Below, piece after piece: positions 28,463-61,543 of a DNA stretch of 64,000 bases (the stretch's first letter is position 1; each line of letters begins with the position of its first letter). This DNA is from an uncultured archaeon (GTDB lineage: Archaea; Aenigmatarchaeota; Aenigmatarchaeia; QMZP01; QMZT01). The DNA lies in the NCBI GenBank assembly GCA_964347025.1, contig CAYFWU010000002.1, positions 5,187 through 69,186 of the forward strand, in the 5' to 3' direction. Position numbers and translations under genes: made by a program. The notes beneath the pieces were generated by a model. The model did no database searches, had not been told where the DNA came from, and was given only the letters and a program-made list of their open reading frames with translations.

Positions 28463-28507
28463 ATACGAATTCTAAATTTTTAATTAAGTCAAGACAAATA
28501 TATAATC

Positions 28508-29425
28508 ATGAAAATAACCAAGATAACCAAGAAAAAGAAAAGTCTCCATCTGGATGTTGTTGCCCTTGTTAAGAAACTTGAGGTCATAATCAAGATTCTT
28601 GTGAACACACAGGTTTCGAGCAGATACAGAAGCGTGTTCAGGGGCAGGGGGCTGGAATTTGAGGACTTCAGGGTTTACACTCCCGGGGATGATGCAAAGG
28701 CGATTGACTGGAAGGCGAGCGTGCGGTCAAACGATATATTAGTTAAAGAGTACAGAGAGGAGAGGGACCTTGATGTTTATTTTTTGCTGGACGTGAGCTC
28801 ATCGATGATATTCGGTTCAACTGAAAAGCTAAAACTTGAGTATGCAGCAGAATTCGTGGCTGCATTCTCTTACTTCGTCATGAAGGCGGGTGATAAGGCA
28901 GGGCTTATAATGTTCAGCGATAAGGTGGTTAATGTCGTTCCAACTTCCACCGGTGATCAACATTTCTACATAATGTTACGTTCGCTGGTGAATGCCAGCC
29001 TTTACGGGGGCGGATACAACCTGAGCAAGGCAATAAAATTCTTGATGAATACGACAAGGCAGAGGGGTTTGCTCATTGTAGTTTCAGATTTCATAGGTCT
29101 GGAAAAGGGCTGGGATAGAATTGTAAAGACAGCGAGCGTAATGTTTGACGTAATTGGGGTAATGGTAAGGGACCCGAGGGACGAGAAACTCCCCAAGGAC
29201 ACAGGACAGATTGTTATTGAAGATCCGTACACAGATGCGAACGTGGTTCTCGACCCAAGAATGATAGCACCAGCCTACGAAAGATACGTTAGGAGAGAAG
29301 AAGAGAAGGTAAGAAAAGTGTTTTTAGGTTGTAATGCTGATTTCCTAAAACTCTCAACATCCGAATCGTTCGCGAAACCACTGATAGAGTTTTTCATAAA
29401 GAGGAGGCGGGTATCATCGATGTAA
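28508..29425 (+). CDS. DUF58 (vWA-like) protein, MoxR partner
   Basis: 305 aa. FEDFRVYTPGDDAKAIDWKASVRSNDILVKEYREERD, then LLDVSSSM. This is the DUF58 signature. Confidence 0.85.
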   Translation: MKITKITKKKKSLHLDVVALVKKLEVIIKILVNTQVSSRYRSVFRGRGLEFEDFRVYTPGDDAKAIDWKASVRSNDILVKEYREERDLDVYFLLDVSSSMIFGSTEKLKLEYAAEFVAAFSYFVMKAGDKAGLIMFSDKVVNVVPTSTGDQHFYIMLRSLVNASLYGGGYNLSKAIKFLMNTTRQRGLLIVVSDFIGLEKGWDRIVKTASVMFDVIGVMVRDPRDEKLPKDTGQIVIEDPYTDANVVLDPRMIAPAYERYVRREEEKVRKVFLGCNADFLKLSTSESFAKPLIEFFIKRRRVSSM

Positions 29426-29472
29426 CATTCTCAAATCCTCTTTATCTTTGGTTTCTGGTAGCCATACCTCTA

Positions 29473-30348
29473 ATGGTTCTTGCCCATTATTTAAGTCTCA
29501 GATTCACGAGGAGGAAGGCCCTCAAGTTTGCCAATTTCCCTGCAATAGAGAGTATAACAGGCAAGAAGATACTATCCAAAAACTACACGCTGTTGATACT
29601 GAGATTGGCAACCCTTTGTTTGCTGATATTTTCTGTGGCCGGAACCACCCTTTGGTATGAAGGACAAACTAGCGAATTTGATTTCATGCTGGCAATAGAT
29701 TCCTCAGGAAGCATGATGGCGACAGACTACACACCAAACAGGCTTGATGCCGCAAAGGGAGCTGCTCTCCTATTTGTTGATAACCTTCCGGAAAGATCAA
29801 ATGTTGGCATAGTTTCATTTGCCGGGGTAAGCTTTATCAAGCAGAAACCTACCTCCGATCTGGGAAAGATCGTAGGAGCAATAGAGAACATTTCGATAGA
29901 ACCTGTCGGAGGAACAGCGATAGGCTCCGCCATCATAACATCTTCTAACCTTCTTTCCGAGTCCGAACAGGCAAAGGTTTTGATCCTGCTGACCGACGGT
30001 CAGAACAACGTGGGACCTTCGATTGAAACCGCGATAGAATATGCGAACGAAAACTACATAACTGTTAACACAATAGGAATAGGAACAGAGGAGGGCGGCG
30101 GCTTCCCAAATCTGACATTCGTTTCAAAGCTCGACCCAAACACACTTAAGTTAATCTCAAATTCCACGGGCGGTAAATACTACGGGGCAAGGAATGAAAC
30201 AGCGCTTTCGGAAGCTTACAAAGAGATCGCACTTTCCAGTATACAAAAACTTTCAACAAACCTTTCGCTCCTTTTCCTGTTCTTGGCGATTATACTACTA
30301 TTCTTGGAATGGGGCCTTGCAAACACGAAATACAGAACACTACCATAA
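29473..30348 (+). CDS. vWA-domain membrane protein, BatA-like. The annotated ATG probably truncates the N-terminus.
   Basis: 291 aa from the ATG. It has the MIDAS motif AIDSSGSM and a C-terminal TM. The conserved BatA-type N-terminal segment (DVTFSNPLYLWFLVAIPL) lies in-frame upstream of the ATG with no canonical start codon. See the finding for this region. Confidence 0.75.
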   Translation: MVLAHYLSLRFTRRKALKFANFPAIESITGKKILSKNYTLLILRLATLCLLIFSVAGTTLWYEGQTSEFDFMLAIDSSGSMMATDYTPNRLDAAKGAALLFVDNLPERSNVGIVSFAGVSFIKQKPTSDLGKIVGAIENISIEPVGGTAIGSAIITSSNLLSESEQAKVLILLTDGQNNVGPSIETAIEYANENYITVNTIGIGTEEGGGFPNLTFVSKLDPNTLKLISNSTGGKYYGARNETALSEAYKEIALSSIQKLSTNLSLLFLFLAIILLFLEWGLANTKYRTLP

Positions 30349-30368: not shown

Positions 30369-32879
30369 TTATTTCTCCTTACCCAAACTTCTCATTATCT
30401 TGTTATACAACTTTATTATTTTTATGGTCTCCTCGTAAAGCTCCTCTTTCTTCTTATCCGGTATCTTGTCATAAAGGAATCTTATTTCGGAATAGATCTC
30501 ACTCGCTCCCTTGGAGTCCCTTCTCTTCAGAGCCTCCTCACCATCATATATCAGTTTTCTGAGTTTATCAAAGGTTTTGAGATCCTCCTTGGTAAACTTA
30601 ACTTTCTCCTTTGGCTTTTCCTTGACCTCCTTCAATTCCAACTCTATCTTTTCCTTTCTCGCCTCTGGCTCAATCTTTTTCAATTCCTTTTCTGCCCTCT
30701 CTCCGAGGGCATCCTCCATTTTCATTCCTGTCAGCCCCTCAACTATTCTTATGGCGTCCTTTATGGTAAGTACAAGTAATGTAACGGGAACTTCCTCTTT
30801 TCCATACTCTATCTCGGAAATACGTATTGAAAAGTGCGTTATCAGATCGGCAAGGTCTTTCTTTAATTTCTTCCTCCTGACAATTTCATTCAACTCAATG
30901 TAGGTGAATTTACGTCTCACCTCGAAAATCTTTGCAAAGAAGTTCCTCATAACCTTAGCGAATTCAGCTGATATCCTTCGGACGGGTTTCTTTCCAATCT
31001 CAAGCTGTATCATGTGAAGTCTTCGAAGGGTTGTGACACCCAGAAGCTGTACGTCAGTTAATATTGGTTTCTTCCTCCTTCTGTATGCCAAAGCAAGCAA
31101 ATACCAACCCCTGTAGAGCAGTATGGATGCCAGGGAGAGCGAAATTATAACGATCAGGTATTCACCCATAAGAAAACCGCAATCCTGGAAACAAGTGAAT
31201 ATCTCGTCTTTCTCGCATACACCGTCCCCGCATTTGGCCGGTATAACTATTTCACAGGGCGGGCAGGGTCCGCCACAGTCTATCCCGTCCTCGCAGATGA
31301 TTGTACCGTCTACCATTCTGTGGCAATTCTTAAGCTTATCGCTGCAGGTGGGACATGGCGGACAGGGTCCTCCACAATCCACAAGTATTTCACAAGATCC
31401 GTGGTGGCAATTCTGTACCTCGTCATTGCAGCTTGGCTCCGGTACGTACGTACAAGGTCTCATTTCAGATGGTTTGTCGAAGGTAGTCCCGCATTCGTTC
31501 TCATCCCAGCATTTCCTCGTCTGTATCTCATAAACAGGACATACGGACCACTCGGAACACCTCCAGTTCTCTATGCATACAGGCGGGGCAGCGGTAGGTG
31601 GAACTCCTCCGCTGGGTGGCGGCTCTATCGGAACATCTTTGACTATTAAGGTCCAGTTATGATAATCTGTCAGCAGACCATCTGATACTACCACGGTCAC
31701 GTTGTGTGTCCCGGCCGAGTCATAGCTTGCATAAAACACATAGCTGTCATTGATCTGACCTGATAATTCTGCTCCATTGAAGTACCATTGTGTCGAGGGC
31801 GTGGTTCCGTCTATATCTTCCTTGGTTATCCAGAAAAGTTGGGACTGCCCCTCACTGATTTCAATGGTGTAATTTTCAGGGTACCATGAAGTTATGTTGG
31901 GCGGGTGGTTAACCGCGACCACAGAGAAACTTATAACCTCCCAATCCCAGCAGATGGTATCCGATACCGAGATGTTTATCGTATAGGTTCCGTTATAGGT
32001 CTCGTTAACAAAGAAATTGATTATGCCTGTTATGGGGCTTATGTTGAAGAATGTTGAATTGTCGTAGAACGTGAGATTTGACCATGCCGGTATGACATCA
32101 TTATCGCTTGCGTTAACATCATAAAAATAGGTCTCGTTTATTATCGCTGTCTGCGCCCCTATCACATCCATAGCAGGACAATCGTTAATGTCCAGAATTG
32201 TGAATCTTACGGACTGCCAGTCCATGAGATCGTATGGATCCTTAACCCATATTATAACATCATGCACACCCACATCCATCTGGGTTGGGGTGAAATCTAT
32301 ATCCCCTGTGTCAGGGTCTATATCGAAAAACGTTGCTGTATCCCCGAAAGTTAACGTGTCGTTATCAGGGTCCGATGCGGTCACGGTGTAAGTGAAATGA
32401 TCACTCTGGTTTATCTCAAAGTCCGGTATAGGGTCGAGGATTGGAGCATAATTTTTCGGTATTACATTGAACTCCACAAATTCAGAATCCTCTTCAAGAC
32501 CACAGGTCCCATACAGCGTTATCCATACCCAGTGTACCCCGCTGTCATTCTCATTGGGGGTGAAGGAAATAATACCCGTCGTCCCATTGATTTCAAAAAG
32601 ATAAGTGTTATCGGTGAAGTAAGCACTCGTTTCGTTTCCTGTGTAGTTTACATCATAGAAATAAGGGTCCTCAACATACGCTGTCTGATTGCCTATGGGA
32701 ACGAGCTGGGCATTGGGATACGCGGTACAGGTATCAACGTAGCCTATCGCCTCTGTTGTAACCTTTGCTTCCATTCTCATAATATAAACCAAAACCTGAA
32801 GCATGAAAACAACTATAAAAATCACAATCAAGATCGCTATCACATTGTTTGAAACCTCTCTCATGCTAAACCCAAACAT
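30369..32879 (-). CDS. Bitopic receptor-like surface protein: Ig/cadherin-like repeats, Cys-rich DCGGPCPPC modules, a TM, and a ~260-aa K/E-rich cytoplasmic tail
   Basis: 836 aa. N-terminal anchor VIAILIVIFIVVFML; domain boundaries DINDCP and AVNHPPN; Cys modules LVDCGGPCPPCPTC and GIDCGGPCPPC; a second TM YLIVIISLSLASILLY followed by RRRKK and a long charged tail. Confidence 0.75.
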   Translation of the reverse strand: MFGFSMREVSNNVIAILIVIFIVVFMLQVLVYIMRMEAKVTTEAIGYVDTCTAYPNAQLVPIGNQTAYVEDPYFYDVNYTGNETSAYFTDNTYLFEINGTTGIISFTPNENDSGVHWVWITLYGTCGLEEDSEFVEFNVIPKNYAPILDPIPDFEINQSDHFTYTVTASDPDNDTLTFGDTATFFDIDPDTGDIDFTPTQMDVGVHDVIIWVKDPYDLMDWQSVRFTILDINDCPAMDVIGAQTAIINETYFYDVNASDNDVIPAWSNLTFYDNSTFFNISPITGIINFFVNETYNGTYTINISVSDTICWDWEVISFSVVAVNHPPNITSWYPENYTIEISEGQSQLFWITKEDIDGTTPSTQWYFNGAELSGQINDSYVFYASYDSAGTHNVTVVVSDGLLTDYHNWTLIVKDVPIEPPPSGGVPPTAAPPVCIENWRCSEWSVCPVYEIQTRKCWDENECGTTFDKPSEMRPCTYVPEPSCNDEVQNCHHGSCEILVDCGGPCPPCPTCSDKLKNCHRMVDGTIICEDGIDCGGPCPPCEIVIPAKCGDGVCEKDEIFTCFQDCGFLMGEYLIVIISLSLASILLYRGWYLLALAYRRRKKPILTDVQLLGVTTLRRLHMIQLEIGKKPVRRISAEFAKVMRNFFAKIFEVRRKFTYIELNEIVRRKKLKKDLADLITHFSIRISEIEYGKEEVPVTLLVLTIKDAIRIVEGLTGMKMEDALGERAEKELKKIEPEARKEKIELELKEVKEKPKEKVKFTKEDLKTFDKLRKLIYDGEEALKRRDSKGASEIYSEIRFLYDKIPDKKKEELYEETIKIIKLYNKIMRSLGKEK

Positions 32880-33291
32880 TGAGGTAAACTACCTGAAGCT
32901 TACCTGTATAGTTACCGATTTCCACATCCGTCGGAACTTCACAGCTGACTGATACGTTTTTCGATTCGCTGGGATCAAGAATGAAGTTGTTTTCCGAAAC
33001 ATAGACCCATTTTGATAAATCACCAAATGTTTTTATCTGTATCATATGTGGTCTGTCATCATTATTGTCGATTATTATCTTTCTTGTGGCCAGACCTCCT
33101 TTTCTGACCTTACCAAAGTATATAGCATCCGTATCCGTATTTATCCCTATCATCTTTCCTCCAACCACCTTTATGTGCATATCAACCTCTTCTGTCGAAA
33201 AGATAACAAAGTTCTCAAACCACAAATAAACGAAGGAAACAGCAATTATAACAACAGCGACAACAGCCAAAAGTTTGACCCCTCTTTTCAA
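32866..33291 (-). CDS. N-terminally anchored single Ig-like (PapD/ASH-like) domain protein (hypothetical)
   Basis: 141 aa. MKRGVKLLAVVAVVIIAVSFVYLWF, then IYFGKVRKGGLATRKIIIDNNDD...FILDPSESKNVSVSCEVP...GNYTGKLQV, a beta-sandwich pattern. Confidence 0.55.
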   Translation of the reverse strand: MKRGVKLLAVVAVVIIAVSFVYLWFENFVIFSTEEVDMHIKVVGGKMIGINTDTDAIYFGKVRKGGLATRKIIIDNNDDRPHMIQIKTFGDLSKWVYVSENNFILDPSESKNVSVSCEVPTDVEIGNYTGKLQVVYLNVWV

Positions 33292-33340
33292 GATACCACC
33301 AATATTTAAATTTGGTCAAAAAGAGTTAAATGCTTTCCAA

Positions 33341-34546
33341 TTAAGACAACTTTTTCTGTATAAACTTCTTCCTTCTTCTCCTCAGGGTTAAAACCGCCAT
33401 AATAGCGAATATTATTATCAGTATTATCACAGCGATCCACATGGGGTTTTTCACGATAAAGTCCAGGAATGACCACTCTTCCTCCACAACCTCCAACGTG
33501 AAGTCCATGGTATCGGTTCCGTTCAGGTAATAGAGCGTCGCTGTCCCCTGATATTCCCCTGGCCCCATCGCCTTCGAGGTGTCCCAGAAGTTGACGAAGT
33601 CTGTCTTTTTCCACGGATAGAGGGTTGAACTTGCACTCTGCGAACCTCCCGAATAACCATCTTTTTTAACATTAATGGAAACGTATGCGTTTTCCATTTT
33701 CTGACTCCAATAGCTTATCACAGTGGTTTTTATCGTTCCTATCGTGCCGTTGGTGATCTTTTCTGAGGTTACATTCAGTATCTTCGCGCTGGGCGAACCC
33801 ACTCTGAAGTCCTCGGAAGTGAACGTGCTGAAACCATCATAATCAATTGTCGCGTTTGCCAGGTACTCACCAGGCTCAACACTAGCCAGCCATTCAGCCT
33901 TAAATTTGGTCCACACCGAATGTTCCATGGATTCGCTGTTGGTTTTGACAAAGGCTATTTTATTTCTACCCTGATCGTAAATATCAATCGTTCCTTGTGC
34001 ATTTTCTATGGTTTGATTCCCTCTGTTTATTGCATCTATCGTGAATTTAACTATCTCGTTCACCTCTCCGCTTTCAACAGTTAACTCCGCCTCCACATAC
34101 TTGCCGGGGTACGCGAGGTGAATTATCAGGTCTGCTCCGACCCGCACCCTTCCTCCCACACCGGTCCCTCCGCTTCCGTCTGACCCGGTAACCACTTGGC
34201 CTGCCCAGATCCAGAGTCTGTGTCTCCCCGGTTTTTCCAGTTTTTCAGGCAACTGAACAACAACATCAGTACATTTAGTTCCGGTTGGCGTGGCCTTTGG
34301 ACCCAGTACAAAGCGTTTCTCGCTTATGGTCACGTATTCAGTCAGGTTTCCCTCTGCGGTCATCTCTACTTCGAAGTAACCTTGGAGAGAATTAGAGACG
34401 CAAACGTTTCTTTCAACCCTCATATTTGGCTGAAAATCGTACTCGCCCAACCCCCCTGGGGATATGCCTAGGGCAAATACGTTTGTTGGGAATATAAAAA
34501 TAAATATAAAAATAATTAAGAGTGTTTTTTTCACCATACTACTCAC
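33341..34546 (-). CDS. Secreted three-domain Ig/CARDB-like protein with a C-terminal TM anchor (paralogue of 38527-39795)
   Basis: 401 aa. Signal peptide KTLLIIFIFIFIFPTNVFA, LGISPGGLGEYDFQPN, YPGKYVEAELTV..., and the C-terminal TM WIAVIILIIIFAIMAVL followed by RRRRKK. Confidence 0.7.
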   Translation of the reverse strand: MSSMVKKTLLIIFIFIFIFPTNVFALGISPGGLGEYDFQPNMRVERNVCVSNSLQGYFEVEMTAEGNLTEYVTISEKRFVLGPKATPTGTKCTDVVVQLPEKLEKPGRHRLWIWAGQVVTGSDGSGGTGVGGRVRVGADLIIHLAYPGKYVEAELTVESGEVNEIVKFTIDAINRGNQTIENAQGTIDIYDQGRNKIAFVKTNSESMEHSVWTKFKAEWLASVEPGEYLANATIDYDGFSTFTSEDFRVGSPSAKILNVTSEKITNGTIGTIKTTVISYWSQKMENAYVSINVKKDGYSGGSQSASSTLYPWKKTDFVNFWDTSKAMGPGEYQGTATLYYLNGTDTMDFTLEVVEEEWSFLDFIVKNPMWIAVIILIIIFAIMAVLTLRRRRKKFIQKKLS

Positions 34547-34561
34547 GTTACTGAAATTTAC

Positions 34562-35299
34562 TTAACAGTTGTTTGATCCCTCAACTGTCACTGTCGTTTG
34601 CTTTCCACCCTCTGAAGTATCTGACGGCAAACCCAGCATAAAGTGAACTCTCATTTCGTCCGTACACTGAGATGCGTTCAGCTGAGTACAGATTGTGGTT
34701 GCTGATGTTCCGACATCTGTCCATTCCTCTGTGAGCGTTCCGACACAGGAATCCGGATAACCGGTTCCGGCACAGGTCGTACTTCCCCAGGTGCTCTCAT
34801 TCTGCTCTCCTGACATCTTGAATTCCGGTGTTTGTGCTGATCCTCCTATCCATGATTGCGGCGTGGCTGCTGCATAAAGCTTTATGCATGTCGATTCGTC
34901 GTTACCGTCGTTCTCAATTACGAATGGATCGGCGCAATTTCCTGAATCGTCGTTACCGCTTTTTCCATATGTACAATTGCCTTCTGTGTTGTTCCCCTCG
35001 CTTCCATTGTTGAAAAAACCTGCGTTGTTACGATCTCCCCACTGGTTTGACTCGTTGGAGTAAATTCGGTGTATAGTAGCTGTGTTGGTGTAACCGCTTC
35101 CGAAGAGAGTCTCGTTTCTAATCAGGGTTATGGATACCTCGCTCGTTATAGTCACGTTGGATTTTCCCGTTCCTGAGGTCGCAAATCCTGTATACTGCAA
35201 AACAGGAATCAGTGTTATCGTGTTCGCCAGTCCTACTATGGAAACCACTATGGCCACTATTAACAAACCTGCAAGCAAATTGTTTGATATTTCAGCCAT
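34562..35299 (-). CDS. Secreted Thr/Ser/Gly/Asn-rich protein with 8 Cys; candidate fibre or minor subunit (hypothetical)
   Basis: 245 aa. The N-terminus MAEISNNLLAGLLIVAIVVSIVG is homologous to the N-terminus of the adjacent 77-aa ORF. Confidence 0.6.
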   Translation of the reverse strand: MAEISNNLLAGLLIVAIVVSIVGLANTITLIPVLQYTGFATSGTGKSNVTITSEVSITLIRNETLFGSGYTNTATIHRIYSNESNQWGDRNNAGFFNNGSEGNNTEGNCTYGKSGNDDSGNCADPFVIENDGNDESTCIKLYAAATPQSWIGGSAQTPEFKMSGEQNESTWGSTTCAGTGYPDSCVGTLTEEWTDVGTSATTICTQLNASQCTDEMRVHFMLGLPSDTSEGGKQTTVTVEGSNNC

Positions 35300-35342
35300 A
35301 TCTATTTTTCCTCCTATTTATATCTTTATCAAAAGAGCATGA

Positions 35343-35576
35343 CTACTCTGTTTCACTCCCGCCAAGAACCTCAACTCCAACCACACCGCCGCTAAAAGTG
35401 GCAGGACTGGAGCTTTCCGGGTTCAGGATAGTTACACCCACGACCCCTGAACCTTCTGGTGGAGGGGCAACAGGAGCTACATAGAGATTGCTCAATATGG
35501 CATAGGTTCCCATTATCGATACTAAGACCAAGACCATAACGAGAACCAGCAATAATCTATTATCTATTTTAGCCAT
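35343..35576 (-). CDS. Small secreted/anchored protein, candidate major subunit (hypothetical)
   Basis: The track ORF uses a TTG at 35585; I prefer the ATG at 35576, giving 77 aa: MAKIDNRLLLVLVMVLVLVSIMGTYAILSNLYVAPVAPPPEGSGVVGVTILNPESSSPATFSGGVVGVEVLGGSETE. It is preceded by the duplicated 29-bp element. Confidence 0.55.
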   Translation of the reverse strand: MAKIDNRLLLVLVMVLVLVSIMGTYAILSNLYVAPVAPPPEGSGVVGVTILNPESSSPATFSGGVVGVEVLGGSETE

Positions 35577-35577
35577 C

Positions 35578-35635
35578 AATACCAACCCTCAAGCTTTATA
35601 TGAATAAATACCAACCCTCAAGCTTTATATGAATA
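35578..35635. repeat. Perfect tandem duplication, 2 x 29 bp (AATACCAACCCTCAAGCTTTATATGAATA)
   Basis: Copies at 35578-35606 and 35607-35635 are identical by direct reading. On the coding (minus) strand each copy reads TATTCATATAAAGCTTGAGGGTTGGTATT, with a TATA-like ATATAAA and an SD-like GAGGG. The proximal copy ends 1 nt before the ATG. Confidence 0.9.
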
Positions 35636-35686
35636 TATTTGTCTTAACTTATTTAAATTTATACTACACCAACCATTTATGGTTAT

Positions 35687-38005
35687 TTAAACCCTTTCCA
35701 CACCAAGATTTACCTTATCCCCCGTGGCCCCTTTATTCTCTATCGCCAGCCTGCTGTAACCCCTGCCTACGCTCAAAGTATCGTTGATATCCACATTATC
35801 ATAACTCAGCACTATTTTCAAAGGGTATTTGTTCCCCAGGCCATAGGAAAACGTGGGTGAGATTTGTGACAGGAATTCGCCCTTCTCTATCATATCAATT
35901 CTCTGGTTTACCTGCCTCCAGTCCCCCCTGGAAAAAACGAGGAATACCACAGAGTTTTGAAACCTCTGATCTGTTCGCATCTCATAGTTTCCTGAGCCTG
36001 TGGATGCATGTATTGATAACGGATTGTCAGGGGAAACAACGAGTGAGGTGAGGATGTTATTCATGTAGGACGCCAGGTAGTAATGAGGAGGATTAACATC
36101 CGTATACGGGCTTATCTGACCAAGCTGCGTGAAGGTTTTTTCTCCTGCTCCGGGGATGTATATGCTGGCTGAATCCCACGTGTTGTTAAACAAAATCTTT
36201 ACCTGAAAATTCAGGGAAACAACGGCTATCTTTTTGAAATCATGATTCCTTCTGTTCTCGTCATCAGTTGCCGTGACATTTACCAGCCAGAGTCCTGCGG
36301 CATTTCCCGGAAGCGTGTAGTTGTACTCGTATATGTAACCGTTGGCTATTTCCGATACATTCGTCATATTCGCGTTATTCACTATCGTAGCCCCCAAATT
36401 ATTTTTTATGACAATGGTTGCATTTGCCAGATAATCCCTTCCGTTACCGCTGGTCACACTCGCTCTCGTCCTGACCATCCTGTTGGGTTTGAAAACGCTC
36501 GTCTCAACAAGCGCCCGGGTGTAAGTTTTGACCTGAACAACCGGCGGGCCAAGACCCTGGAGATGCACGATCAATAACTTGCTGGTCGTCAGATTCTCGG
36601 AGGTCTGGTTCGAGGGGTAGCCTGTTTTGTTGACATCCACCGTATAATTGGTGTAGAAGGATTTCCCTGAGGGTGTCTGGTTGTACTCGCTGAGGACCTG
36701 TCTTGGTATGTAGCCGGAAGAGTTGGTCTGACCGCTGAACCATGAATAGTTATAGGTATCCGTTACGCTTACATTCGCGTTTGCAACAGGGGTTTCAGAC
36801 GTGTCCCTGACCTGTATGTCCAGATACCACTTGACCCAGATTACCGCACTTGAGCTTACGGAAACATCATTCTTATCGAAGGTGGAGTTTATGAAGTAGT
36901 TGTTTGAGGAGCCTGTCACGACAATCTGATAATCCGAGGACGCGCTTATGACGGTGTCAATCACGTAGTTGTTGTCGGTGTTTGAAAAGCTCACACCATC
37001 ATCGTCATTCGAGTGTATATAAGATCCTGTAAGGTTGTTGTTTGAACTAGCACTTATCGCTATCCCATCGACATCGTTTGCATAACTCTCTATACCTGTC
37101 ATAACATTGCTGGAGGAGCTGTCCATGTGAAGACCGTTCAGTGTATTGTCGGAAATAATAGCATTATCAACCCTGTTACCGTTGGAGGAGGATTCAAAAT
37201 AGATTCCGTAGCCCGTGTTGAGAGAGCTGTTCACACCGGTTATATTATTGTTCGTTGACTGGGAAAATCGAATGCCTGTGTTCCCGTTCGATTTGACATT
37301 GCCTCCCTCTATCCTGTTTCCAGATGACGATCCCAAATAAATTCCCCTTACCTGGTTTGACGTTACGTTGCTCTCATAGATAACGTTACCAGTGGTGGTA
37401 ACGAAATTAACGCCGTCCTGGGTGTTTAAACCTACGTATGTGTATTCGATCCTGCTGTTGTTCGAGGCCGAGAACCAGAACCCGTGATTCGTATTGTTCG
37501 AGACGTTTCCATGGCTGAAGTTGTTACCCAGGGAGGAAAGAAAAACCACACCATAATCATTATTCAGATAAACCGTGTTGTTGGTGAAGTTGTTGTAATT
37601 AGAGGAGGAGAATGCGTTTATACCTCTGTTTGTAATGGATGTGATGAGGTTGTTGTATATCTTGTCATCGGTTGAAGAGGACATATAAATTCCGTACGTC
37701 CAGTCGGATATCTCACAGTTACGGACAGTCACGTTATCGTAGTTTACAATGAATACCCCGTAAGTGTCACCACCATCAACACCGTCTATCCTATAACCCT
37801 GGCAATCCAGGATCACATCATTCGCCTGAACATCCATGCATGTCGAGTTCGTGGAATTCCAGATGTCCTGTGTTAAATTGTAGGTCTCTCCTTGTGTGTC
37901 CAGAACCGAACAGTTATCTATATTGACCGATAAAACAGGTTGTGCATTTAATAACGCGAAGATGATGGTCATGAATGCCGCTATCCAAACACCCTTCCCC
38001 CACAT
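35687..38005 (-). CDS. Secreted right-handed parallel beta-helix (NosD/PbH1-like) repeat protein
   Basis: 772 aa. Signal VWIAAFMTIIFALLNAQPVLS. It has many ~22-residue repeats of the type N.I..N...GI.l..S..N.i..N, for example VRNCEISDWTYGIYMSSSTDDKIYNN. Sequon-rich. Confidence 0.7.
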   Translation of the reverse strand: MWGKGVWIAAFMTIIFALLNAQPVLSVNIDNCSVLDTQGETYNLTQDIWNSTNSTCMDVQANDVILDCQGYRIDGVDGGDTYGVFIVNYDNVTVRNCEISDWTYGIYMSSSTDDKIYNNLITSITNRGINAFSSSNYNNFTNNTVYLNNDYGVVFLSSLGNNFSHGNVSNNTNHGFWFSASNNSRIEYTYVGLNTQDGVNFVTTTGNVIYESNVTSNQVRGIYLGSSSGNRIEGGNVKSNGNTGIRFSQSTNNNITGVNSSLNTGYGIYFESSSNGNRVDNAIISDNTLNGLHMDSSSSNVMTGIESYANDVDGIAISASSNNNLTGSYIHSNDDDGVSFSNTDNNYVIDTVISASSDYQIVVTGSSNNYFINSTFDKNDVSVSSSAVIWVKWYLDIQVRDTSETPVANANVSVTDTYNYSWFSGQTNSSGYIPRQVLSEYNQTPSGKSFYTNYTVDVNKTGYPSNQTSENLTTSKLLIVHLQGLGPPVVQVKTYTRALVETSVFKPNRMVRTRASVTSGNGRDYLANATIVIKNNLGATIVNNANMTNVSEIANGYIYEYNYTLPGNAAGLWLVNVTATDDENRRNHDFKKIAVVSLNFQVKILFNNTWDSASIYIPGAGEKTFTQLGQISPYTDVNPPHYYLASYMNNILTSLVVSPDNPLSIHASTGSGNYEMRTDQRFQNSVVFLVFSRGDWRQVNQRIDMIEKGEFLSQISPTFSYGLGNKYPLKIVLSYDNVDINDTLSVGRGYSRLAIENKGATGDKVNLGVERV

Positions 38006-38080
38006 ACTTTATAATTTGTACTCAATTAAATAATAGTTTAAATCTCGAAAGGATATAAAATTTAAAACCAAGGAATATGC

Positions 38081-38530
38081 ATGAAAGACCCCAGATTTTA
38101 CATTCTTCCTATCATTTCAATAATTCTGATCGCGGTAATCCTCTTCAGACCTGACATAACTGGATTAGTTGTGGGAGCGGGAGAACCCGCGGATGGGATA
38201 AAACACCTGACCGGTAAGGTTAGGATAACCATTTACGATACCATAATACCAGAGGATTCGGTCGTTACGATCTTCCTTGGTGACCAGAGTTCAAGCATGC
38301 CGATAAAGGAATTCATAGAGAAGTCAGGCGGTATTTACGAAGTTGAGTACGGGCGAATCCCTGACATAGGCTATGAAGGATACGGTTACGCTGGCGAGCA
38401 TTTCTACACACTCGATCTTTCAGAATTCGACCTCGATCTGGATCTGGAACCGGGTGAATATACCCTGATAACAGAGGTCAGCTATGAAAACTTCGTCATA
38501 TCAAGTACAGCAGAAGACATAGTTGTTTAA
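38081..38530 (+). CDS. N-terminally anchored small protein (hypothetical)
   Basis: 149 aa. FYILPIISIILIAVILF then ITGLVVG. It is the only plus-strand gene inside the surface region and is convergent with the 422-aa gene (4-bp stop overlap). Confidence 0.45.
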   Translation: MKDPRFYILPIISIILIAVILFRPDITGLVVGAGEPADGIKHLTGKVRITIYDTIIPEDSVVTIFLGDQSSSMPIKEFIEKSGGIYEVEYGRIPDIGYEGYGYAGEHFYTLDLSEFDLDLDLEPGEYTLITEVSYENFVISSTAEDIVV

Positions 38531-39795
38531 CCACTTCTCCTTCTTCTCCTGAAGTAGAAGAACCACCCCATGTTTATCATTATCAGTATTATGACGAGCG
38601 GCGTCAGTACATCGTATCCCCCTTCCTCCTCTCTCCTGAGGACCTCTGCCGTCACGCCGATTATTTCAGTTGTAAGGCTTTCGAGCTCTATGTATGTCTT
38701 CAGCTTCCTTTCCGTTGTTTTACCAGCGTAGTGCAGGATAAGCTTCGCATCGTATACCCCCTTCTCAACACCCACAGTGTCCCAATACGCCAGCAACGTT
38801 TCCTTTTGAAGAGGTTCGATGTCAACAGAAGCTGATTTAAAACTAGTAACTACATCTCCCTTGGGATCTGTTATTATCATCTCAGCATACACATTTTCGA
38901 TCTTCTCGTTCCATTTGCTCTCGACCAAAATATTGAACTTCGCGACTCCGCCGAGCCTGAATCCTTTCACTGTCACCTCCTTAACCTCTACGAAAAGATT
39001 TCCCACATAGAAGTTATCTTCCTTTCTTGCGAGATTCCCGTCGTAATCCAAGGTCGCTACCGCATGATAAACCCCTGGGTTTACATCGGCTTTCCAGTAT
39101 GCTGCCAGATCCTTCCTCTCCTTTGATTTTATAGATATCTCATCTGTTTCTATCGTAGCGATCACTTCGTTGGTCGGACCTTTTATTTCAACAGTCGCCT
39201 TCGCTCTTCCTATGTTCTGCGTTCCTAGGTTGTAAACCTTTACAAAGAAGTTCACAGTTTCAGACGGCTGGGCCTCGGCAATTGACAGGTCCATTTCCGC
39301 ATACTTACCCGGGTATGGAACCTTTACAAGCAGCTGATGGATTACGGCAGTGGTGGCTATCACGAACTGCCCTTCGATTTCTTCAGCCTCCATTCCAGGC
39401 GGGAGTTCCATGACAACTATCTTTCCCCAGTGCTCACCAGGTTTGTCGATCCTTTCAGGCAACCTTACAGTGTAGGTGAAGGGCTTGGAGTTGTCAGATT
39501 CCTTGAACTCAACAAGATTCTTTTCCAGGGTTACGTAATCCTTCAGATCGCCTTCCACGTAGACTAGGGCATTGAATGCCTTGTGATCGTTGTTGAGGAT
39601 ATCGAAATTGACCTTCTGGAAGAGATTTGGCTCGAAATCTACGGTTTTTCTACCAGGCGTTACCCCTATCCCTTGAACGCCCTGTGAGAATACGCCTAGG
39701 GCTAACACCAACGTCAGCATCACTACCAAACCCCTAAACCTGCTCTGCCTTGACATTTTCCTCTTCTCCCACTTCCAGGGATTCATCAACCCCAA
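38527..39795 (-). CDS. Secreted three-domain Ig/CARDB-like protein with a C-terminal TM anchor (paralogue of 33341-34546)
   Basis: 422 aa, with an alternative start at 39756. Signal GLVVMLTLVLALGVFSQGVQG, IGVTPGRKTVDFEPN, YPGKYAEMDLSI..., and the C-terminal TM PLVIILIMINMGWFFYF followed by RRRRRSG. Confidence 0.7.
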   Translation of the reverse strand: MGLMNPWKWEKRKMSRQSRFRGLVVMLTLVLALGVFSQGVQGIGVTPGRKTVDFEPNLFQKVNFDILNNDHKAFNALVYVEGDLKDYVTLEKNLVEFKESDNSKPFTYTVRLPERIDKPGEHWGKIVVMELPPGMEAEEIEGQFVIATTAVIHQLLVKVPYPGKYAEMDLSIAEAQPSETVNFFVKVYNLGTQNIGRAKATVEIKGPTNEVIATIETDEISIKSKERKDLAAYWKADVNPGVYHAVATLDYDGNLARKEDNFYVGNLFVEVKEVTVKGFRLGGVAKFNILVESKWNEKIENVYAEMIITDPKGDVVTSFKSASVDIEPLQKETLLAYWDTVGVEKGVYDAKLILHYAGKTTERKLKTYIELESLTTEIIGVTAEVLRREEEGGYDVLTPLVIILIMINMGWFFYFRRRRRSG

Positions 39796-40222
39796 GTACG
39801 AAAGACCCGGTCAACCTATGTAAAACAAGGTCGACGTTTCCTGAGTTCTTAACATCATCACCTGCCCTCGAAAGACTCACGCTCGACCCTATCGTTAGCT
39901 TACGAACGCCACTCGAAAAGACCCCGCTGTTAACCTTCCAGTAATACGTTCCGAAATTCAGGTCGTTAACGAACCTGAAGGAATTTCCGGAAACCTTTGT
40001 TGAGAAGGGTGAAGTGAAGCCGGGATCATCATCCAAGAAAAGATCGTATTCATTATGCAAACCGTTCCACACGAATTCAGGCCTTCTCTCTGTTGTATAA
40101 ACCCCGTCAGCCGGTTCTATCAAAGGGATAGTCGCTATGTTTACAAAGAGGTAAACAAGCAGACCTATGACTAACAAATTCGTTAGTACCACCCCAAATT
40201 TCAAGATTTTAAGTTTCACCAA
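39734..40222 (-). CDS. N-terminally anchored Fn3-like module protein (hypothetical)
   Basis: 162 aa. TM VVLTNLLVIGLLVYLFV, then PADGVYTTERRPEFVWNG...YDLFLDDDPGFTSPF...GTYYWKV. It overlaps both neighbouring genes. Confidence 0.5.
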   Translation of the reverse strand: MVKLKILKFGVVLTNLLVIGLLVYLFVNIATIPLIEPADGVYTTERRPEFVWNGLHNEYDLFLDDDPGFTSPFSTKVSGNSFRFVNDLNFGTYYWKVNSGVFSSGVRKLTIGSSVSLSRAGDDVKNSGNVDLVLHRLTGSFVLGVDESLEVGEEENVKAEQV

Positions 40223-41795
40223 TATACCACCCTGTGAATATAAGGGTTGAAGACTTCGCCCCTGGAGGTTCGTCGAGCGGAACCATTATCTGCATTTCGA
40301 CTTCAGCCGAATCGTTGTTATCCGTGTAATTCAGGGAATCTATGAATGTAACATTGACCAAGGGGACGTTAGTCCATGTTGTGGTTGATCCACTCCAATT
40401 GAATGCCCCAATCTCACCGGAGAACCAGTCAACAGAGTAGTTGAAGTAGTCCGAAGGGAGGCCGGCTGAAACCCAGAGAGAATCCATCGCGGAAACATTC
40501 GCGTCTATTATGCAGTTCCCGTCGTTATGCAACCCGAATGGATTCGGAGCACCATCAGATGTGTCGTTCTGGTAACCCAGGGGCCTGTCTTCTCCGAAAT
40601 CAACCAGATCAGGTGAGATGGAAATGGAAACGTTTGTATCTATTGTGAAGTTCCATTTCACGCTCTCCGTTCCGTTCTCGTACGAATCATACGCCTTTAC
40701 GGACCAGTTGTAGTAGTAGTTGTCATCCCCGAAGTACTGCAATTCGCTGGGTGGTGTATAGTTGAGTTCGCTGGTACTTGCATACCTGTCGTCACTTGAG
40801 CAATCCCCTCCCCCCAACTTAAAACAGCTTATGTTTACGAAGTACGTGAGAGAATCACCATCCGCGTCACTTGGCTCGTTCCATTTTAGTGTTGGCGTTC
40901 GGTTGGTGAAGTGATCCCCATTTGGAGGGGAATCCAGAATGACCTGATCCGGTTCGTCATTCTCTCTGAACAGCCTCTGCGATTCATTGCCCCACATGCC
41001 GTTCGAATCGTTCGCGTAAACATTGAAGTAGTATGTCGTCCCGTCAGCCGTGGCCTTCGTTATGTTACAAAACACGTTACTCCCGCTCCCTATCATTTCC
41101 ATTGTCTCATTCTGCGCATCCGCGGCCCCCACCTTCCATTCAAGAATGCACGTATCCACGCTTGTCTGCGAATCCGCTGTAACGGATACGTTTATAATCA
41201 CGCTGTTGTTGATCTGTCTAGAATCATTCGCCGGGGTCGGATCTTCATACATTACGCTCAGATCAGTCGCAACCCTGCAGCATATCTTTTTCTCGTACTG
41301 ATCGCAGGGCCCTATATGCGAATCGGTGTCATTGTTTACAGAGGCATTCGAGCTTGCCATGGAAGCGAAGCACTCCCTGTCGCTAGGGCAGGCGCTGTCC
41401 ACGTACGTGCAGTTAAAGTAACCGGGCGTTGTAAACAGACAGACACTGACACCGTAAATTATCCCAGGCCCTGAATAATCACCTCGCTGAACGTGAGAAT
41501 TCGTTGTGTCGTTAAGTCTCAGAAAAACGCCACCGCACCCGGACGCCAGGGTCGAGTTAGAATTACAGCACACGACGTAATCATACGTTCCGACAGAAAC
41601 ATTCTGGGCATGCGCATTCCGGTAACCCCCCGTGTCGTTTTCGAGGTAGATAACATCCGTGAAAGCGCAGGTCTGGTTTTCCATTATCGTGCAGTTGAAA
41701 TCACCTGCCGCTGACGCCAGGTATACGAAAACCATGGAGAGAAGAAAAATTAGCTCAAAGATCATTAAGTTGCTTCCCCTGGAACTTTTTTTCAA
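40209..41795 (-). CDS. Secreted Cys-rich, sequon-rich protein with an Fn3-like module (hypothetical)
   Basis: 528 aa. Signal LIFLLSMVFVYLASAAG. The N-terminal domain repeats N(A/S)H...Y..vCC-type motifs, followed by PPNGDHFTNRTPTLKWNEPSDADGDSLTY. Confidence 0.6.
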   Translation of the reverse strand: MKKSSRGSNLMIFELIFLLSMVFVYLASAAGDFNCTIMENQTCAFTDVIYLENDTGGYRNAHAQNVSVGTYDYVVCCNSNSTLASGCGGVFLRLNDTTNSHVQRGDYSGPGIIYGVSVCLFTTPGYFNCTYVDSACPSDRECFASMASSNASVNNDTDSHIGPCDQYEKKICCRVATDLSVMYEDPTPANDSRQINNSVIINVSVTADSQTSVDTCILEWKVGAADAQNETMEMIGSGSNVFCNITKATADGTTYYFNVYANDSNGMWGNESQRLFRENDEPDQVILDSPPNGDHFTNRTPTLKWNEPSDADGDSLTYFVNISCFKLGGGDCSSDDRYASTSELNYTPPSELQYFGDDNYYYNWSVKAYDSYENGTESVKWNFTIDTNVSISISPDLVDFGEDRPLGYQNDTSDGAPNPFGLHNDGNCIIDANVSAMDSLWVSAGLPSDYFNYSVDWFSGEIGAFNWSGSTTTWTNVPLVNVTFIDSLNYTDNNDSAEVEMQIMVPLDEPPGAKSSTLIFTGWYIGET

Positions 41796-41873
41796 GATAT
41801 CCCCCTCCCTCTAAAACACGCATTCCTTCCAATTATAATCTTGGTGGCTAAGAAATAAAAAACGACTCTGAAG

Positions 41874-42464: not shown

Positions 42465-42479
42465 ACAATAAAAATGTAG

Positions 42480-42643
42480 ACATAATTTAAAAAAGTTAAA
42501 TAAAAAGAAAAACAAAAAGGGACTAAAGGAGCTTTTACTTCCTCGTCCCTTCTTGTATCTTTCCTGTTTTGGAAGCAAGCGACGGAGCAGAACGCGAGTA
42601 AGCGCAGCTCCTTTCTGCTTAAGCTCTTTCTTGAAAAGAGCTT
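42480..42643 (-). terminator. Hairpin at the stop codon plus a downstream oligo-T tract (candidate terminator of the fibre gene)
   Basis: A 9-bp stem AAGCTCTTT/AAAGAGCTT (42621-42643) overlaps the TAA of the 1399-aa ORF. On the minus strand, 42486-42519 reads as T-runs (ttttgtttttctttttatttaactttttt). Confidence 0.3.
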
Positions 42644-46841: not shown

Positions 46842-46887
46842 TTCTCTTCACCTCCCCTTTGTGACTTATTGGTCACCATGATATCAC

Positions 46888-50443: not shown

Positions 50444-50495
50444 AATAAAAACAGTGTTAAATAAAAATAAATAACTTTGATTTTCAATCTATAAA

Positions 50496-51545: not shown

Positions 51546-51546
51546 T

Positions 51547-53938: not shown

Positions 53939-53939
53939 C

Positions 53940-55502: not shown

Positions 55503-55543
55503 CTAAACACCAATATTCTTTTAAAGATGTTAGGAATTAAAAG

Positions 55544-55969: not shown

Positions 55970-55988
55970 TTACTCCGACCCTGAGTAT

Positions 55989-57644: not shown

Positions 57645-57685
57645 TCAGTAAGTTTTTGAATCCAAATTTTAAAAACAAATGCCGA

Positions 57686-59026: not shown

Positions 59027-59104
59027 ATAAAAATTTAATGAAAATTAAATTTAAAAACCCAAACAAAGGGAAATTCTATTTAAAATTACCAAGAAATTAT
59101 AAAC

Positions 59105-59809: not shown

Positions 59810-59818
59810 GACGATAAC

Positions 59819-61504: not shown

Positions 61505-61543
61505 AAGATTAAAGTTTTTAAATCATTTATTGATTGTGGTTGA

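Follow-up and report, generated by a model that had tools for sequence, protein, structure and literature searches.

We showed that three proteins encoded by one operon of a DPANN archaeon (Candidatus Aenigmarchaeota), here called small (77 aa), mid (245 aa) and large (831 aa), carry a common N-terminal module. By profile comparison, the likeness between small and mid is true homology, with a module of about 55 residues, and the module matches no known signal class. As judged from the sequences, the helix of the module, conserved and unusual, marks a large uncharacterised archaeal cell-surface protein family. The reading that we tentatively favour, with a chance somewhat short of even, is that the operon would build a membrane-anchored multi-protein cell-surface (adhesion) complex analogous to the WxL clusters of Firmicutes. 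The three genes were located as follows in the window, i.e. the whole stretch of 64,000 nucleotides that was analysed.

35343-35576, minus strand: small protein gene, 77 aa (ORF list)
34562-35299, minus strand: mid protein gene, 245 aa (ORF list)
30369-32864, minus strand: large protein gene, 831 aa counted from an internal Met, with the ORF extending to 32879 (ORF list)

The 77-aa and 245-aa ORFs of the original prediction were both present on the minus strand. The module consists of a head of 1-4 residues, usually acidic, a helix with the pattern [DE]-[IV]-S-N-[NK]-x-L-A-x-L-L-x-x-A-I-x-x-S-x-x-G, a variable linker and a first beta-strand with the pattern G-x-[AV]-N-V-T-I or G-V-V-G-V-x-I-L. 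The proteins start with MAKIDN (small), MAEISN (mid) and MREVSN (large), respectively. Over the first 23 residues, small and mid were identical at 12 of 23 positions in register; the similarity predicted earlier was therefore real, while its count of 11/23 was one too low (the pattern given with it itself holds 12 letters). At least 11 identities, the count of the original prediction being used as threshold although 12 were observed, arose in composition-preserving shuffles with p = 8e-5, and with p = 7e-4 when head and core were shuffled separately. As a control, 55 pairs of other N-terminal TM segments of the window were compared at any offset and gave at most 8/23. An HMM built from the N-termini of the 245-aa family only gave the N-terminus of the 77-aa protein 12.1 bits (E = 8.8e-3, 1316 ORFs searched), against 3.3 bits for the best unrelated TM segment. 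By hhalign, the small family matched the mid family over residues 1-53 (96% probability, E = 4.5e-9) and the large protein matched the mid family over residues 1-67 (93.5%, E = 2.4e-7); a TM-anchored operon neighbour, used as negative control for this kind of comparison, gave no N-terminal match. Chance likeness of TM anchors, which the original prediction had raised against itself, was ruled out by the control pairs, the N-terminal HMM and the negative control. The proposed design of a shared N-terminal helix with divergent C-terminal parts fits these results.

A wider search, as had been suggested, found the N-terminus conserved across a very large family. The mid family comprises 2211 clusters (50% identity, E <= 1e-3) and has no Pfam or NCBIfam model. 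Its most conserved part is the helix, with a majority-residue frequency of 0.62 in residues 1-25 vs 0.33 in the domain. Such conservation is not expected of ordinary cleaved Sec signal peptides. Among 115 representatives, the residue before I-S-N was E in 57 and D in 42 (99/115 together), and the pre-sequence ahead of I-S-N was 1-4 residues long and had no basic stretch. The helix has an acidic N-flank and is often followed by K/R. The 42-aa profile of the N-terminal module (alignment A8) retrieved only 6 short proteins from a set of 5.8 billion, and the N-terminal profile matched nothing significant among the PDB sequences, pilins and archaellins being absent at E <= 10.

The small protein consists of the N-terminal helix MAKIDNRLLLVLVMVLVLVSIMG, a Pro-rich linker and two short strand motifs, GVVGVTIL and GVVGVEVL. 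The helix and both motifs were conserved in the small-family alignment (A4, 14 sequences), and the small gene was found upstream of the mid gene in many loci (L001, L004-L010, L013, L014 and L016-L030). Neither the 77-aa nor the 245-aa protein matched any model of Pfam and NCBIfam.

The mid protein begins with the helix MAEISNNLLAGLLIVAIVVSIVG, followed by a linker, the conserved T37-G38 and G45, and a beta-sandwich domain that contains 8 Cys as well as 8 N-x-S/T sequons. The AF2 model (pLDDT 83.7, pTM 0.73) predicted the beta-sandwich, with a helix at residues 6-29 and then a coil of about 25 residues. In a Foldseek search with this model no match reached E <= 1e-3, and TM-scores, normalised to the target, were at most 0.55. 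The best matches were CfaB (E = 0.03-0.04, probability up to 0.84), FimA and FimF (TM 0.49-0.52), the cannula protein CanX (9h8b) and the Hyper2 tube (TM 0.55), with further weak matches to PapA/PapE, CsuA/B and Caf1, and the TasA, AbpA and thread structures were absent from the top 50. For the 245-aa protein, the predicted beta-sandwich, with weak best matches to pilins and cannula subunits, agrees in part with the original prediction; a TasA/AbpA relationship was not supported. The mid profile found nothing significant or relevant among the PDB sequences. Peptidase_M73/TasA and Fimbrial Pfam models matched 0/100 mid-family members, in which one stray Caf1 match appeared (E = 0.0096), so that TasA/AbpA membership had no sequence-profile support. 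Some genomes hold 2-4 tandem mid paralogues (L007, L009). Protein P0158 of locus L014 is a fusion of a beta-helix protein with a mid-type domain which lacks the helix yet keeps the TG-x-A segment. Because this helix-less domain retains it, TG-x-A is structural and not just a cleavage site, and its reading purely as a signal-peptidase site was ruled out.

The large gene, with the same N-terminus, had been overlooked in the original prediction. The N-terminus of its product, MREVSNNVIAILIVIFIVV, was identical to that of the 245-aa protein at 10/23 positions. After the module follow PKD/Ig-like domains, Cys-rich CGGPCPPC repeats and, on the C-terminal side, a second TM segment, from which a Lys-rich tail of about 230 aa extends into the cytoplasm; with this second TM segment and tail, the large protein therefore cannot leave the membrane. 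One member of the large family starts with MKG|VSNN and is the sole case of a KG dipeptide.

The neighbouring genes encode further surface proteins.

35687-38005, minus strand: beta-helix protein, 772 aa (Pfam Beta_helix 5e-26, NosD 6e-24)
33341-34537, minus strand: WxLIP_HBD-like protein, about 398 aa (alignment A5, Pfam)
32866-33291, minus strand: PapD-like protein, 141 aa (Pfam ASH/MSP)
38527-39756, minus strand: WxLIP_HBD-like paralogue, 409 aa from an internal Met at 39756 (alignment)

The conserved operon order was beta-helix protein, small, mid, WxLIP_HBD-like protein, PapD-like Ig protein and large. Small, mid and WxLIP_HBD-like genes occurred together in Aenigmarchaeota loci and in the distant archaeal loci L013 and L014; L012 kept mid, WxLIP_HBD-like, PapD-like and large genes, and the small gene was not found there. 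PapD-like and large genes were often present in related loci too. The 772-aa protein, a secreted right-handed beta-helix (NosD-like), is a conserved upstream neighbour (L001, L002, L005-L007 and L010). The protein of about 398 aa has a signal peptide, three Ig-like domains, a C-terminal TM helix and an RRRRKK tail. WxLIP_HBD (PF11797, DUF3324) was the top Pfam match in 6/8 members of this family (E 1e-6 to 6e-5), with one member above the gathering score (29.0 bits vs a cut-off of 28.9), the others mostly below it and the window copy at E = 0.15 only. Pfam detected no DUF916/PGBD domain in the family, and the profile of the family matched nothing significant among PDB sequences. The 409-aa paralogue (a 422-aa ORF to 39795 if read from an upstream TTG) aligned end to end with the 398-aa family and has a CARDB-like domain (E = 2.5e-4) and a C-terminal TM helix. 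The 141-aa protein combines an N-terminal TM anchor with one ASH/MSP (PapD-like) Ig domain; the Pfam matches to ASH (E = 1.9e-4) and MSP (E = 3e-3) were both under the gathering score, and its profile matched the ASH domains of FAP65/hydin in the PDB (E = 1.7e-3). Sequons per 100 aa were 2.4-4.0 in mid, large and beta-helix proteins vs 0-0.4 in cytoplasmic proteins (1.0 in a DUF58 protein). The annotated ORFs of the 64-kb window included no type IV pilus ATPase, no platform protein, no peptidase A24 and no signal peptidase I; no usher gene was found in the window, and the conserved operon of related loci lacked an assembly ATPase, a platform protein and a prepilin peptidase.

The regions ahead of the small and mid genes contained the following elements.

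35650-35657, minus strand: TATA box TTTAAATA of archaeal type, conserved, its start 81 nt upstream of the small-gene ATG
35578-35635, minus strand: perfect tandem duplication, 2 x 29 bp, of TATTCATATAAAGCTTGAGGGTTGGTATT (TRF)
35615-35619, minus strand: distal SD-like GAGGG (sequence)
35586-35590, minus strand: proximal SD-like GAGGG, within the conserved TTGAGGGTTGGTATT (sequence)
35310-35315, minus strand: canonical SD AGGAGG, 10 nt upstream of the 245-aa ATG

TRF recovered the perfect 29-bp duplication as originally described (period 29, 2.0 copies, 100% matches, score 116), ATATAAA and GAGGG were present in each copy as noted, and 1 nt separated the end of the repeat from the small-gene ATG. 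The 29-mer did not occur elsewhere in the window, even with 3 mismatches, and a dispersed repeat was ruled out by the presence of two copies only. The NCBI MAG contig and a Logan assembly made independently from run ERR2564004 both contain the 58 bp, and the unit was single-copy in all of about 13 relatives; on this evidence the repeat is a genuine, recent and strain-specific tandem duplication. The original prediction had offered a recent event or an assembly artefact: the former agreed with the single copy in relatives, and the latter was contradicted by the second assembly.

Across about 13 related loci, TTTAAATA started 46-57 nt upstream of the ATG. The identical octamer lay at -46 to -57 in L001, L004-L008 and L010, L009 had the TATA-like TTTAAGAG at -54, L023 had TTTTAAATA in its place, and in L016-L020, L022 and L025 TTTAAATA was seen at a similar distance (by eye, positions not computed). 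The window has few TATA boxes of this kind (about 0.2 per kb per strand), and TTTAAATA is probably the operon promoter. Its start at -81 in the window equals -52 minus 29, and this shift by 29 nt therefore puts the repeat downstream of the likely transcription start and upstream of the ATG. Lying downstream of the conserved TTTAAATA, the repeat duplicates the 5' leader with the SD-like GAGGG and not the promoter. Transcription would start from the TTTAAATA box upstream of the repeat, and with the duplication the leader would measure about 51 nt in place of about 22 and have the SD-like element twice. The proposal of a duplicated promoter, with a leadered mRNA from the distal copy and a near-leaderless one from the proximal copy, did not survive the position of TTTAAATA upstream of the repeat, and the very high expression of a major structural subunit derived from it was not supported. 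GAGGG/TTGAGGGTTGGTATT stood directly before the ATG in L001, L004, L005, L008 and L020; before the mid gene a purine-rich GGAGG(-like) SD element was found in 9/9 loci, with AGGAGG in 5/9. Rfam contained no RNA family matching 34400-35900, and the leader structure was not above shuffles with or without the duplication (z = +0.6 and +1.6), which ruled out a riboswitch or attenuator. It is very improbable that the duplication is an assembly artefact or a functional second promoter. A perfect repeat invites suspicion and each copy carries ATATAAA, but the 58 bp are shared by the two assemblies, and the periodic stretch is shorter than period + k (k = 31) and than the read length, so that the assembly should not be ambiguous. 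The conserved TTTAAATA upstream accounts for transcription in all relatives, and the proximal ATATAAA, starting at about -25, is too near the ATG and would have transcription begin within the start codon or past it. Taken alone, the leader duplication is a minor matter; it shows a promoter/leader region changing by small tandem duplications.

In the favoured reading of an anchored surface complex, the module helix would insert N-in/C-out and stay, serving as membrane anchor and as a common interface joining small, mid and large. On the outside, the mid beta-sandwich, the two free strands of small and the Ig domains of the WxLIP_HBD-like and PapD-like proteins may join by strand augmentation, and the large protein would direct its PKD/Ig and Cys-rich domains outward with its tail in the cytoplasm. 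The homology of the module, the conservation of the operon, the size of the family, the predicted fold and the position of the repeat relative to the TATA box are results of the analysis. Retention of the helix, formation of a complex, function in adhesion and the transcription start we infer. The module homology, the conserved helix with its D/E before I-S-N, the operon conservation, the topology of the large protein, the sequon density and the missing pilus machinery speak for such a complex. The charges around the helix do not obviously favour N-in, and the likeness to WxLIP is at domain level and mostly below the gathering score; both speak against it.

Other assemblies may be considered for the same proteins. 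A fibre held together by donor-strand complementation (TasA/thread/cannula-like or chaperone-usher-like) is possible but rather unlikely. The SNN helix would then be a specialised leader or a transient anchor, after processing the mid strand G-x-A-N-V-T-I would complete the beta-sandwich of the neighbouring subunit, the 77-aa protein (helix and two strands, no acceptor domain) would be a membrane-anchored terminator or base, and the PapD-like 141-aa protein would be the chaperone. Archaeal donor-strand filaments are established (PMC12518558). The top Foldseek matches of mid, though weak, are mostly donor-strand subunits (CfaB, FimA, FimF, CanX), and these matches together with the tandem mid paralogues of L009 and L007, as in pilin loci, both favour a fibre. 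The strand after the linker alternates hydrophobic residues in all three families, and the PapD-like/ASH Ig domain of the 141-aa protein also agrees with it. Against it, the mid matches do not reach E <= 1e-3, TasA, AbpA and thread structures fall outside the top 50, Peptidase_M73/TasA and Fimbrial models are found in none of the 100 members, and neither the operon nor the window has a signal peptidase I gene, which is often adjacent in TasA-like loci. Moreover, conservation is higher in the leader than in the domain, the large protein, which has the same module, carries a TM segment on its C-terminal side followed by a cytoplasmic tail, and TG-x-A is kept inside the helix-less domain of P0158.

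It is quite doubtful that the proteins are leaderless type IV pilin-like subunits with the SNN helix as polymerisation helix, where small would be a minimal pilin, mid a major or minor pilin and large the tip or base, with machinery encoded elsewhere and prepilin processing slight or missing. It would suit pilins that a single conserved hydrophobic N-terminal helix recurs ahead of different C-terminal parts and exceeds the globular part in conservation. The LLVVAIVV of the helix we take to resemble, loosely, the archaeal Pilin_N core, one large-family member has the KG dipeptide, and archaeal pilins also have an Ig-like beta-sandwich domain. However, D/E precedes I-S-N in nearly all representatives after a very short pre-sequence free of basic stretches, and the 77-aa and 245-aa proteins have no class III [KR]-[GA] motif, as the original prediction had already stated. 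Pilin_N and archaeal flagellin N-terminal profiles gave no match among the window proteins (Pfam and NCBIfam, E <= 0.1) or in 100 mid-family members (E <= 0.01), and PDB pilins and archaellins were likewise unmatched. The predicted short helix with its coil is not a long alpha-1 packed on a sheet, the ATPase, platform protein and peptidase A24 are absent from the 64 kb and from the conserved operon, and the large protein has a C-terminal anchor as well. The cleavage motif, the profile matches and the neighbouring machinery expected of the type IV pilin class all failed.

Attachment to other cells is the way of life of DPANN archaea, and to our knowledge the molecules making this contact are largely unknown. 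The operon, being widespread and glycoprotein-rich with adhesin-type domains, is a candidate for DPANN cell contact. A further reading, which we consider unlikely, takes the [DE]-[IV]-S-N-[NK] helix as a new archaeal assembly signal class, with leaderless subunits forming a DPANN-specific host-contact fibre without class III processing, the 77-aa protein as membrane base and expression tuned by recurrent small promoter/leader duplications; polymerisation would then proceed via the helix or the strand after it. Should the module be a co-assembly anchor that is retained, the operon would be an archaeal counterpart of WxL-type surface complexes, and should it be a polymerisation signal, it would define a new filament class. 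The pattern [DE]-[IV]-S-N-[NK]-x-L-A-x-L-L provides a sequence handle for finding such proteins.

Compared with known systems, the type IV pilins and the archaellins of archaea (class III signal peptide, Pilin_N PF07790) likewise have a conserved hydrophobic N-terminal helix common to several proteins of a locus, an extracellular beta-sandwich and glycosylation sequons, but differ from the proteins described here, which have an acidic residue at -1 in place of a [KR]-[GA] site, a pre-sequence of 1-4 residues, a short helix followed by a long coil and no machinery nearby. The TasA superfamily (AbpA, Sulfolobus thread 0406, CanX) and the chaperone-usher pilins (CfaB, FimA) are the best, albeit weak, structural neighbours of the mid beta-sandwich, and a conserved N-terminal strand and a PapD-like Ig protein in the operon also recall donor-strand filaments. 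Unlike these, the mid family has no sequence-profile link to them, its N-terminus is a strongly conserved helix and not an ordinary Sec/SPI signal, and signal peptidase I and usher are not adjacent.

The WxL/Csc clusters of Firmicutes consist of a small WxL protein, a large WxL protein, a WxLIP (DUF916-DUF3324-TM) and a small LPXTG protein; their composition has been described and insertion of a WxLIP strand into WxL predicted (PMC10599100, PMC9772566), and WxLIP-WxL assembly by beta-strand insertion is a prediction (PMC10599100). The shared module here is an N-terminal TM helix and not a C-terminal peptidoglycan-binding WxL domain, which Pfam found in none of 100 mid-family members nor in the large protein; the host is an archaeon without peptidoglycan, and the beta-helix and PapD-like Ig proteins are extra members. 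In both systems a small (about 200-250 aa) and a large protein (500-1000 aa, adhesive Ig-type domains) share one anchoring module and are clustered, in conserved gene order, with a WxLIP-like protein. This protein of about 350-400 aa has a signal peptide, Ig domains, a middle domain matching WxLIP_HBD, a C-terminal TM helix and, as in WxLIP, a basic tail after it, and both systems include a very small, separately anchored protein. The parallel with WxL clusters is one of architecture, not of shared ancestry of the anchoring module.

We found that the small and mid genes belong to a widespread, unannotated archaeal surface-protein operon, three of whose products have a common non-canonical N-terminal module. 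The original prediction had reported N-terminal likeness between the 77-aa and 245-aa ORFs; this observation was confirmed and extended to a third carrier of the module, the large protein. The operon genes are listed below in the order observed in Aenigmarchaeota, together with one paralogue.

Genes of the operon and a paralogue encoded in the window
First in order: beta-helix protein, ~680-775 aa
35343-35576, minus strand: small gene, 77 aa (ORF call)
34562-35299, minus strand: mid gene, 245 aa (ORF call)
33341-34537, minus strand: WxLIP-like protein, ~390-400 aa; signal peptide, three Ig-like domains, C-terminal TM helix
32866-33291, minus strand: TM + Ig (PapD-like) protein, 141 aa here and ~140-170 aa across Aenigmarchaeota loci; fifth in order, before large
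30369-32879, minus strand: large gene, 836-aa ORF, most likely starting at the sixth codon (MREVSNNVIAILIVIFIVV), giving 831 aa
38527-39756: paralogue of the ~390-aa WxLIP-like protein

Over their first 23 residues the small and mid proteins were identical at 12 positions, in register. A shuffled 77-aa segment attained at least 11 identities at p = 8e-5, or at p = 7e-4 with separate shuffling of polar head and hydrophobic core, and the similarity stood clear of random membrane anchors, with 55 control pairs of other N-terminal TM segments of the window reaching at most 8/23 at any offset. As a non-circular check, an HMM trained on residues 1-30 of mid-family representatives alone was used to search every ORF of 50 aa or more, 1316 in total, from the window and the related loci L001-L012. 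All small- and large-family N-termini were recovered at 6-22 bits, placed exactly at the N-terminus (window 77-aa protein, 12.1 bits, E = 8.8e-3), and the top unrelated TM segment scored 3.3 bits. Profile-profile comparison aligned small residues 1-53 with mid 2-55 (96% probability, E = 4.5e-9) and large residues 1-67 with mid 2-76 (93.5%, E = 2.4e-7), while a TM-anchored operon neighbour used as control had no N-terminal match. At the sequence level, the N-terminal similarity exceeds chance, and the extent of the profile alignments shows that the homologous unit is larger than the helix alone, comprising helix, variable linker and first beta-strand (GTGKSNVTIT in the mid protein, GSGVVGVTIL in the small).

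The mid protein had 18 relatives in a 90%-clustered set, and an exhaustive profile search returned 2211 clusters (50% identity) at E <= 1e-3 and 1319 at E <= 1e-10, nearly all with members of 200-250 aa aligned from residue 1. No Pfam or NCBIfam family covers mid-type proteins. The N-terminal consensus of 115 representatives, anchored on the motif, was M-x(0-2)-[ED]-[IV]-S-N-[KRN]-x-L-A-x-L-L-V-V-A-I-V-V-S-L-G-G-T, and the residue preceding I-S-N was acidic in 99/115. With a majority-residue frequency of 0.62 over residues 1-25 vs 0.33 over 61-245, the predicted helix is the most conserved stretch of the mid protein; T37-G38 and G45, located after the variable linker, are near-invariant. Some lineages have a small-protein head of MAKSNN or MAEDISR, a direct match to the mid-type motif.

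Small-family proteins (14 sequences compared, with further ones in distant loci) always ran from the helix through a Pro-rich linker to two short strand motifs with an acidic or polar spacer between them, and had no globular domain. The mid protein has 8 Cys. Beyond the module, the large protein has PKD/Ig-like domains and Cys-rich CGGPCPPC repeats, then a second TM segment that leads into a cytoplasmic tail of ~230 residues, rich in Lys. Density of N-x-S/T sequons per 100 aa was 3.3 in the mid protein, 2.4 in the large protein (20 observed vs 4.7 +/- 2.0 in shuffles) and 4.0 in the beta-helix protein, against 0-0.4 in the cytoplasmic proteins of the window (1.0 in the DUF58 protein); because of this high density, the C-terminal parts are almost certainly extracellular glycoproteins.

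The Aenigmarchaeota gene order was beta-helix, small, mid, ~390-400-aa protein, TM + Ig protein and large, with MoxR, DUF58 and VWA genes on the other strand, convergent with the operon. In the window the MoxR AAA+, DUF58 and VWA genes lie at 27470-30348, converging on the operon end; L001 also has the VWA and DUF58 genes beside the operon, as do other Aenigmarchaeota loci judging by their ORF pattern. In the distant archaeal loci L013 and L014 the small, mid and ~390-aa proteins remain together, no small gene was detectable in L012, and in many cases the TM + Ig protein and the large protein are retained as well. L014 encodes P0158, in which a beta-helix protein is joined to a mid-type domain without the helix but with the TG-x-A segment; this 'Rosetta stone' fusion ties the beta-helix gene found upstream in the other loci to the system. 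P0158 (8001-10784, 927 aa) has two NosD-like beta-helix modules and a C-terminal mid-type beta-sandwich, and downstream of its gene lie L014's own small, mid, WxLIP-like and PapD-like genes. In L007 the entire small + mid pair is tandemly duplicated with ~60 nt of promoter (4861-5803 and 5981-6620), and in L009 (2575-4821) three to four tandem mid paralogues, one broken by a run of N, lie between the small and WxLIP-like genes. Pfam WxLIP_HBD (DUF3324) was the top match in 6/8 members of the ~390-aa family (E = 1.2e-6 to 6e-5, one member above the gathering score); the window copy reached E = 0.15 only. The 141-aa protein matched an ASH/MSP (PapD-like) Ig domain with sub-threshold scores.

The perfect 2 x 29-bp duplication described upstream of the 77-aa ORF was recovered by TRF (35578-35635, period 29, 2.0 copies, 100% identity), with no further copy of the 29-mer in the window when three mismatches were permitted. 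Both the NCBI contig and a Logan assembly made independently from run ERR2564004 carry it; the window matches WVXR01000359.1 (Candidatus Aenigmarchaeota MAG, GCA_011773405.1). The unit was single-copy in all relatives compared. In the upstream regions of ~14 related lineages a conserved TTTAAATA box starts 46-57 nt before the ATG, and the short leader after it ends in a conserved TTGAGGGTTGGTATT. The window box lies further out, with its start at -81, equal to the -51 to -52 of the closest relatives plus 29. Since the usual archaeal spacing from box to start site is ~25-30 nt, the duplicated unit would run roughly from the transcription start to position -2. Judged from these alignments, the event is a duplication of the 5' leader plus the SD-like GAGGG. 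The proposed duplicated promoter was not supported: the conserved TTTAAATA box lies upstream of the repeat, the ATATAAA of the unit sits about at the putative transcription start of single-copy relatives, and the proximal ATATAAA, at ~-25, is too near the ATG for driving a useful transcript. The leader was without notable structure, with or without the extra copy, and matched no Rfam family. A canonical AGGAGG of its own precedes the mid gene, 10 nt before the ATG, and a GGAGG-like SD element is kept there in all loci compared; the mid gene is probably co-transcribed with the small gene, because the 43-nt spacer contains no conserved TATA box.

The duplication also creates a 12-codon frame (35577-35614), which opens with a TTG immediately behind the distal GAGGG and ends in a TGA overlapping the small-gene ATG (TGATG); the TTG stands in a poor start context, and neither ATG nor GTG occurs in the added leader. 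A diverged, older 24-nt direct repeat (35650-35706, 75% identity, 34 nt apart, TTGGTGT-N9-TTTAAATAA) has one copy overlapping the beta-helix gene stop codon and the other forming the promoter. A related element, GGTTGGT[AG]T, is found again in the leader; with the repeat, it could be a regulator binding site. Perfect short tandem duplications (period >= 8) were rare, with 2 in the 64-kb window and ~11 in ~245 kb of all loci. Nevertheless, four independent lineages have their only such duplication, or one of few, within ~120 nt upstream of the small gene (window 35578-35635, L001 5637-5658, L007 4757-4781 and L009 2238-2253), with different units of 29, 10, 12 and 8 nt. The corresponding region of L006 holds a 19-nt pair that is imperfect (~4946-4983), and ~ten other lineages have no tandem duplication. 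The promoter/leader of this surface operon may be a duplication hotspot.

The 18-kb run at 30369-48975 encodes almost only secreted or membrane proteins, including a 1399-aa protein with YadA-head repeats (42642-46841) and 528-aa, 695-aa, 234-aa and 162-aa proteins without a Pfam match; a cadherin/Big_9 protein of 1400 aa is encoded at 23166-27368. The window also has neighbouring genes of archaeal housekeeping function (PCNA, RadB-like, topoisomerase, purine synthesis). From 50000 to 64000 the GC content falls from ~45% to 36-39%. Proteins encoded there include five radical SAM enzymes (two B12-binding, three SPASM), two PMT_2 glycosyltransferases, a GT2 and an epimerase; the region could be an island for modifying glycans or lipids.

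The AlphaFold2 model of the mid protein (100-sequence alignment, pLDDT 83.7, pTM 0.73) had a helix at 6-29, coil at 30-55 and then a beta-sandwich. Foldseek against the PDB gave nothing at E <= 1e-3, and the top weak matches were mostly polymerising donor-strand subunits: CfaB (E = 0.04, prob 0.84), FimA and FimF (target-normalised TM 0.49-0.52), cannula protein 9h8b and the Hyper2 tube (TM 0.55), and PapA/PapE, CsuA/B and Caf1. We take this modelled likeness as a lead, with no claim of membership. A donor-strand fibre, for which archaeal precedents exist (PMC12518558), is possible but on the unlikely side: these structural neighbours, the alternating pattern of the conserved first strand, the tandem mid paralogues in L009 and L007, the strand-only small protein and the PapD-like protein would fit it, whereas profiles gave no link to TasA or fimbrial families, a signal peptidase was not found adjacent, and the leader is conserved more than the domain. 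Leaderless type IV pilin-like subunits we regard as improbable; the pilin-like interpretation first offered, one shared helix with a divergent rest, is partly supported as a design analogy, but membership among type IV pilins fell on every testable defining feature, and the window ORFs include no type IV filament ATPase, platform protein, peptidase A24 or signal peptidase I.

Our tentative preference, held at rather less than even confidence, is an anchored surface complex, and the probability left after these three readings belongs to alternatives outside them. In the anchored complex the helix would be retained as membrane anchor and common interface, and the ectodomains would join the WxLIP-like and PapD-like proteins by strand augmentation. 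The extreme conservation of the helix, the finding of no processing motif or peptidase, the WxLIP_HBD matches and the anchoring of the large protein at both ends are consistent with this complex. Its logic is the same as in the Firmicute WxL/Csc clusters, where a small and a large protein with one anchoring module are encoded beside WxLIP and a small anchored protein, and where AlphaFold predicts a WxLIP hairpin inserting into WxL (PMC10599100, PMC9772566).
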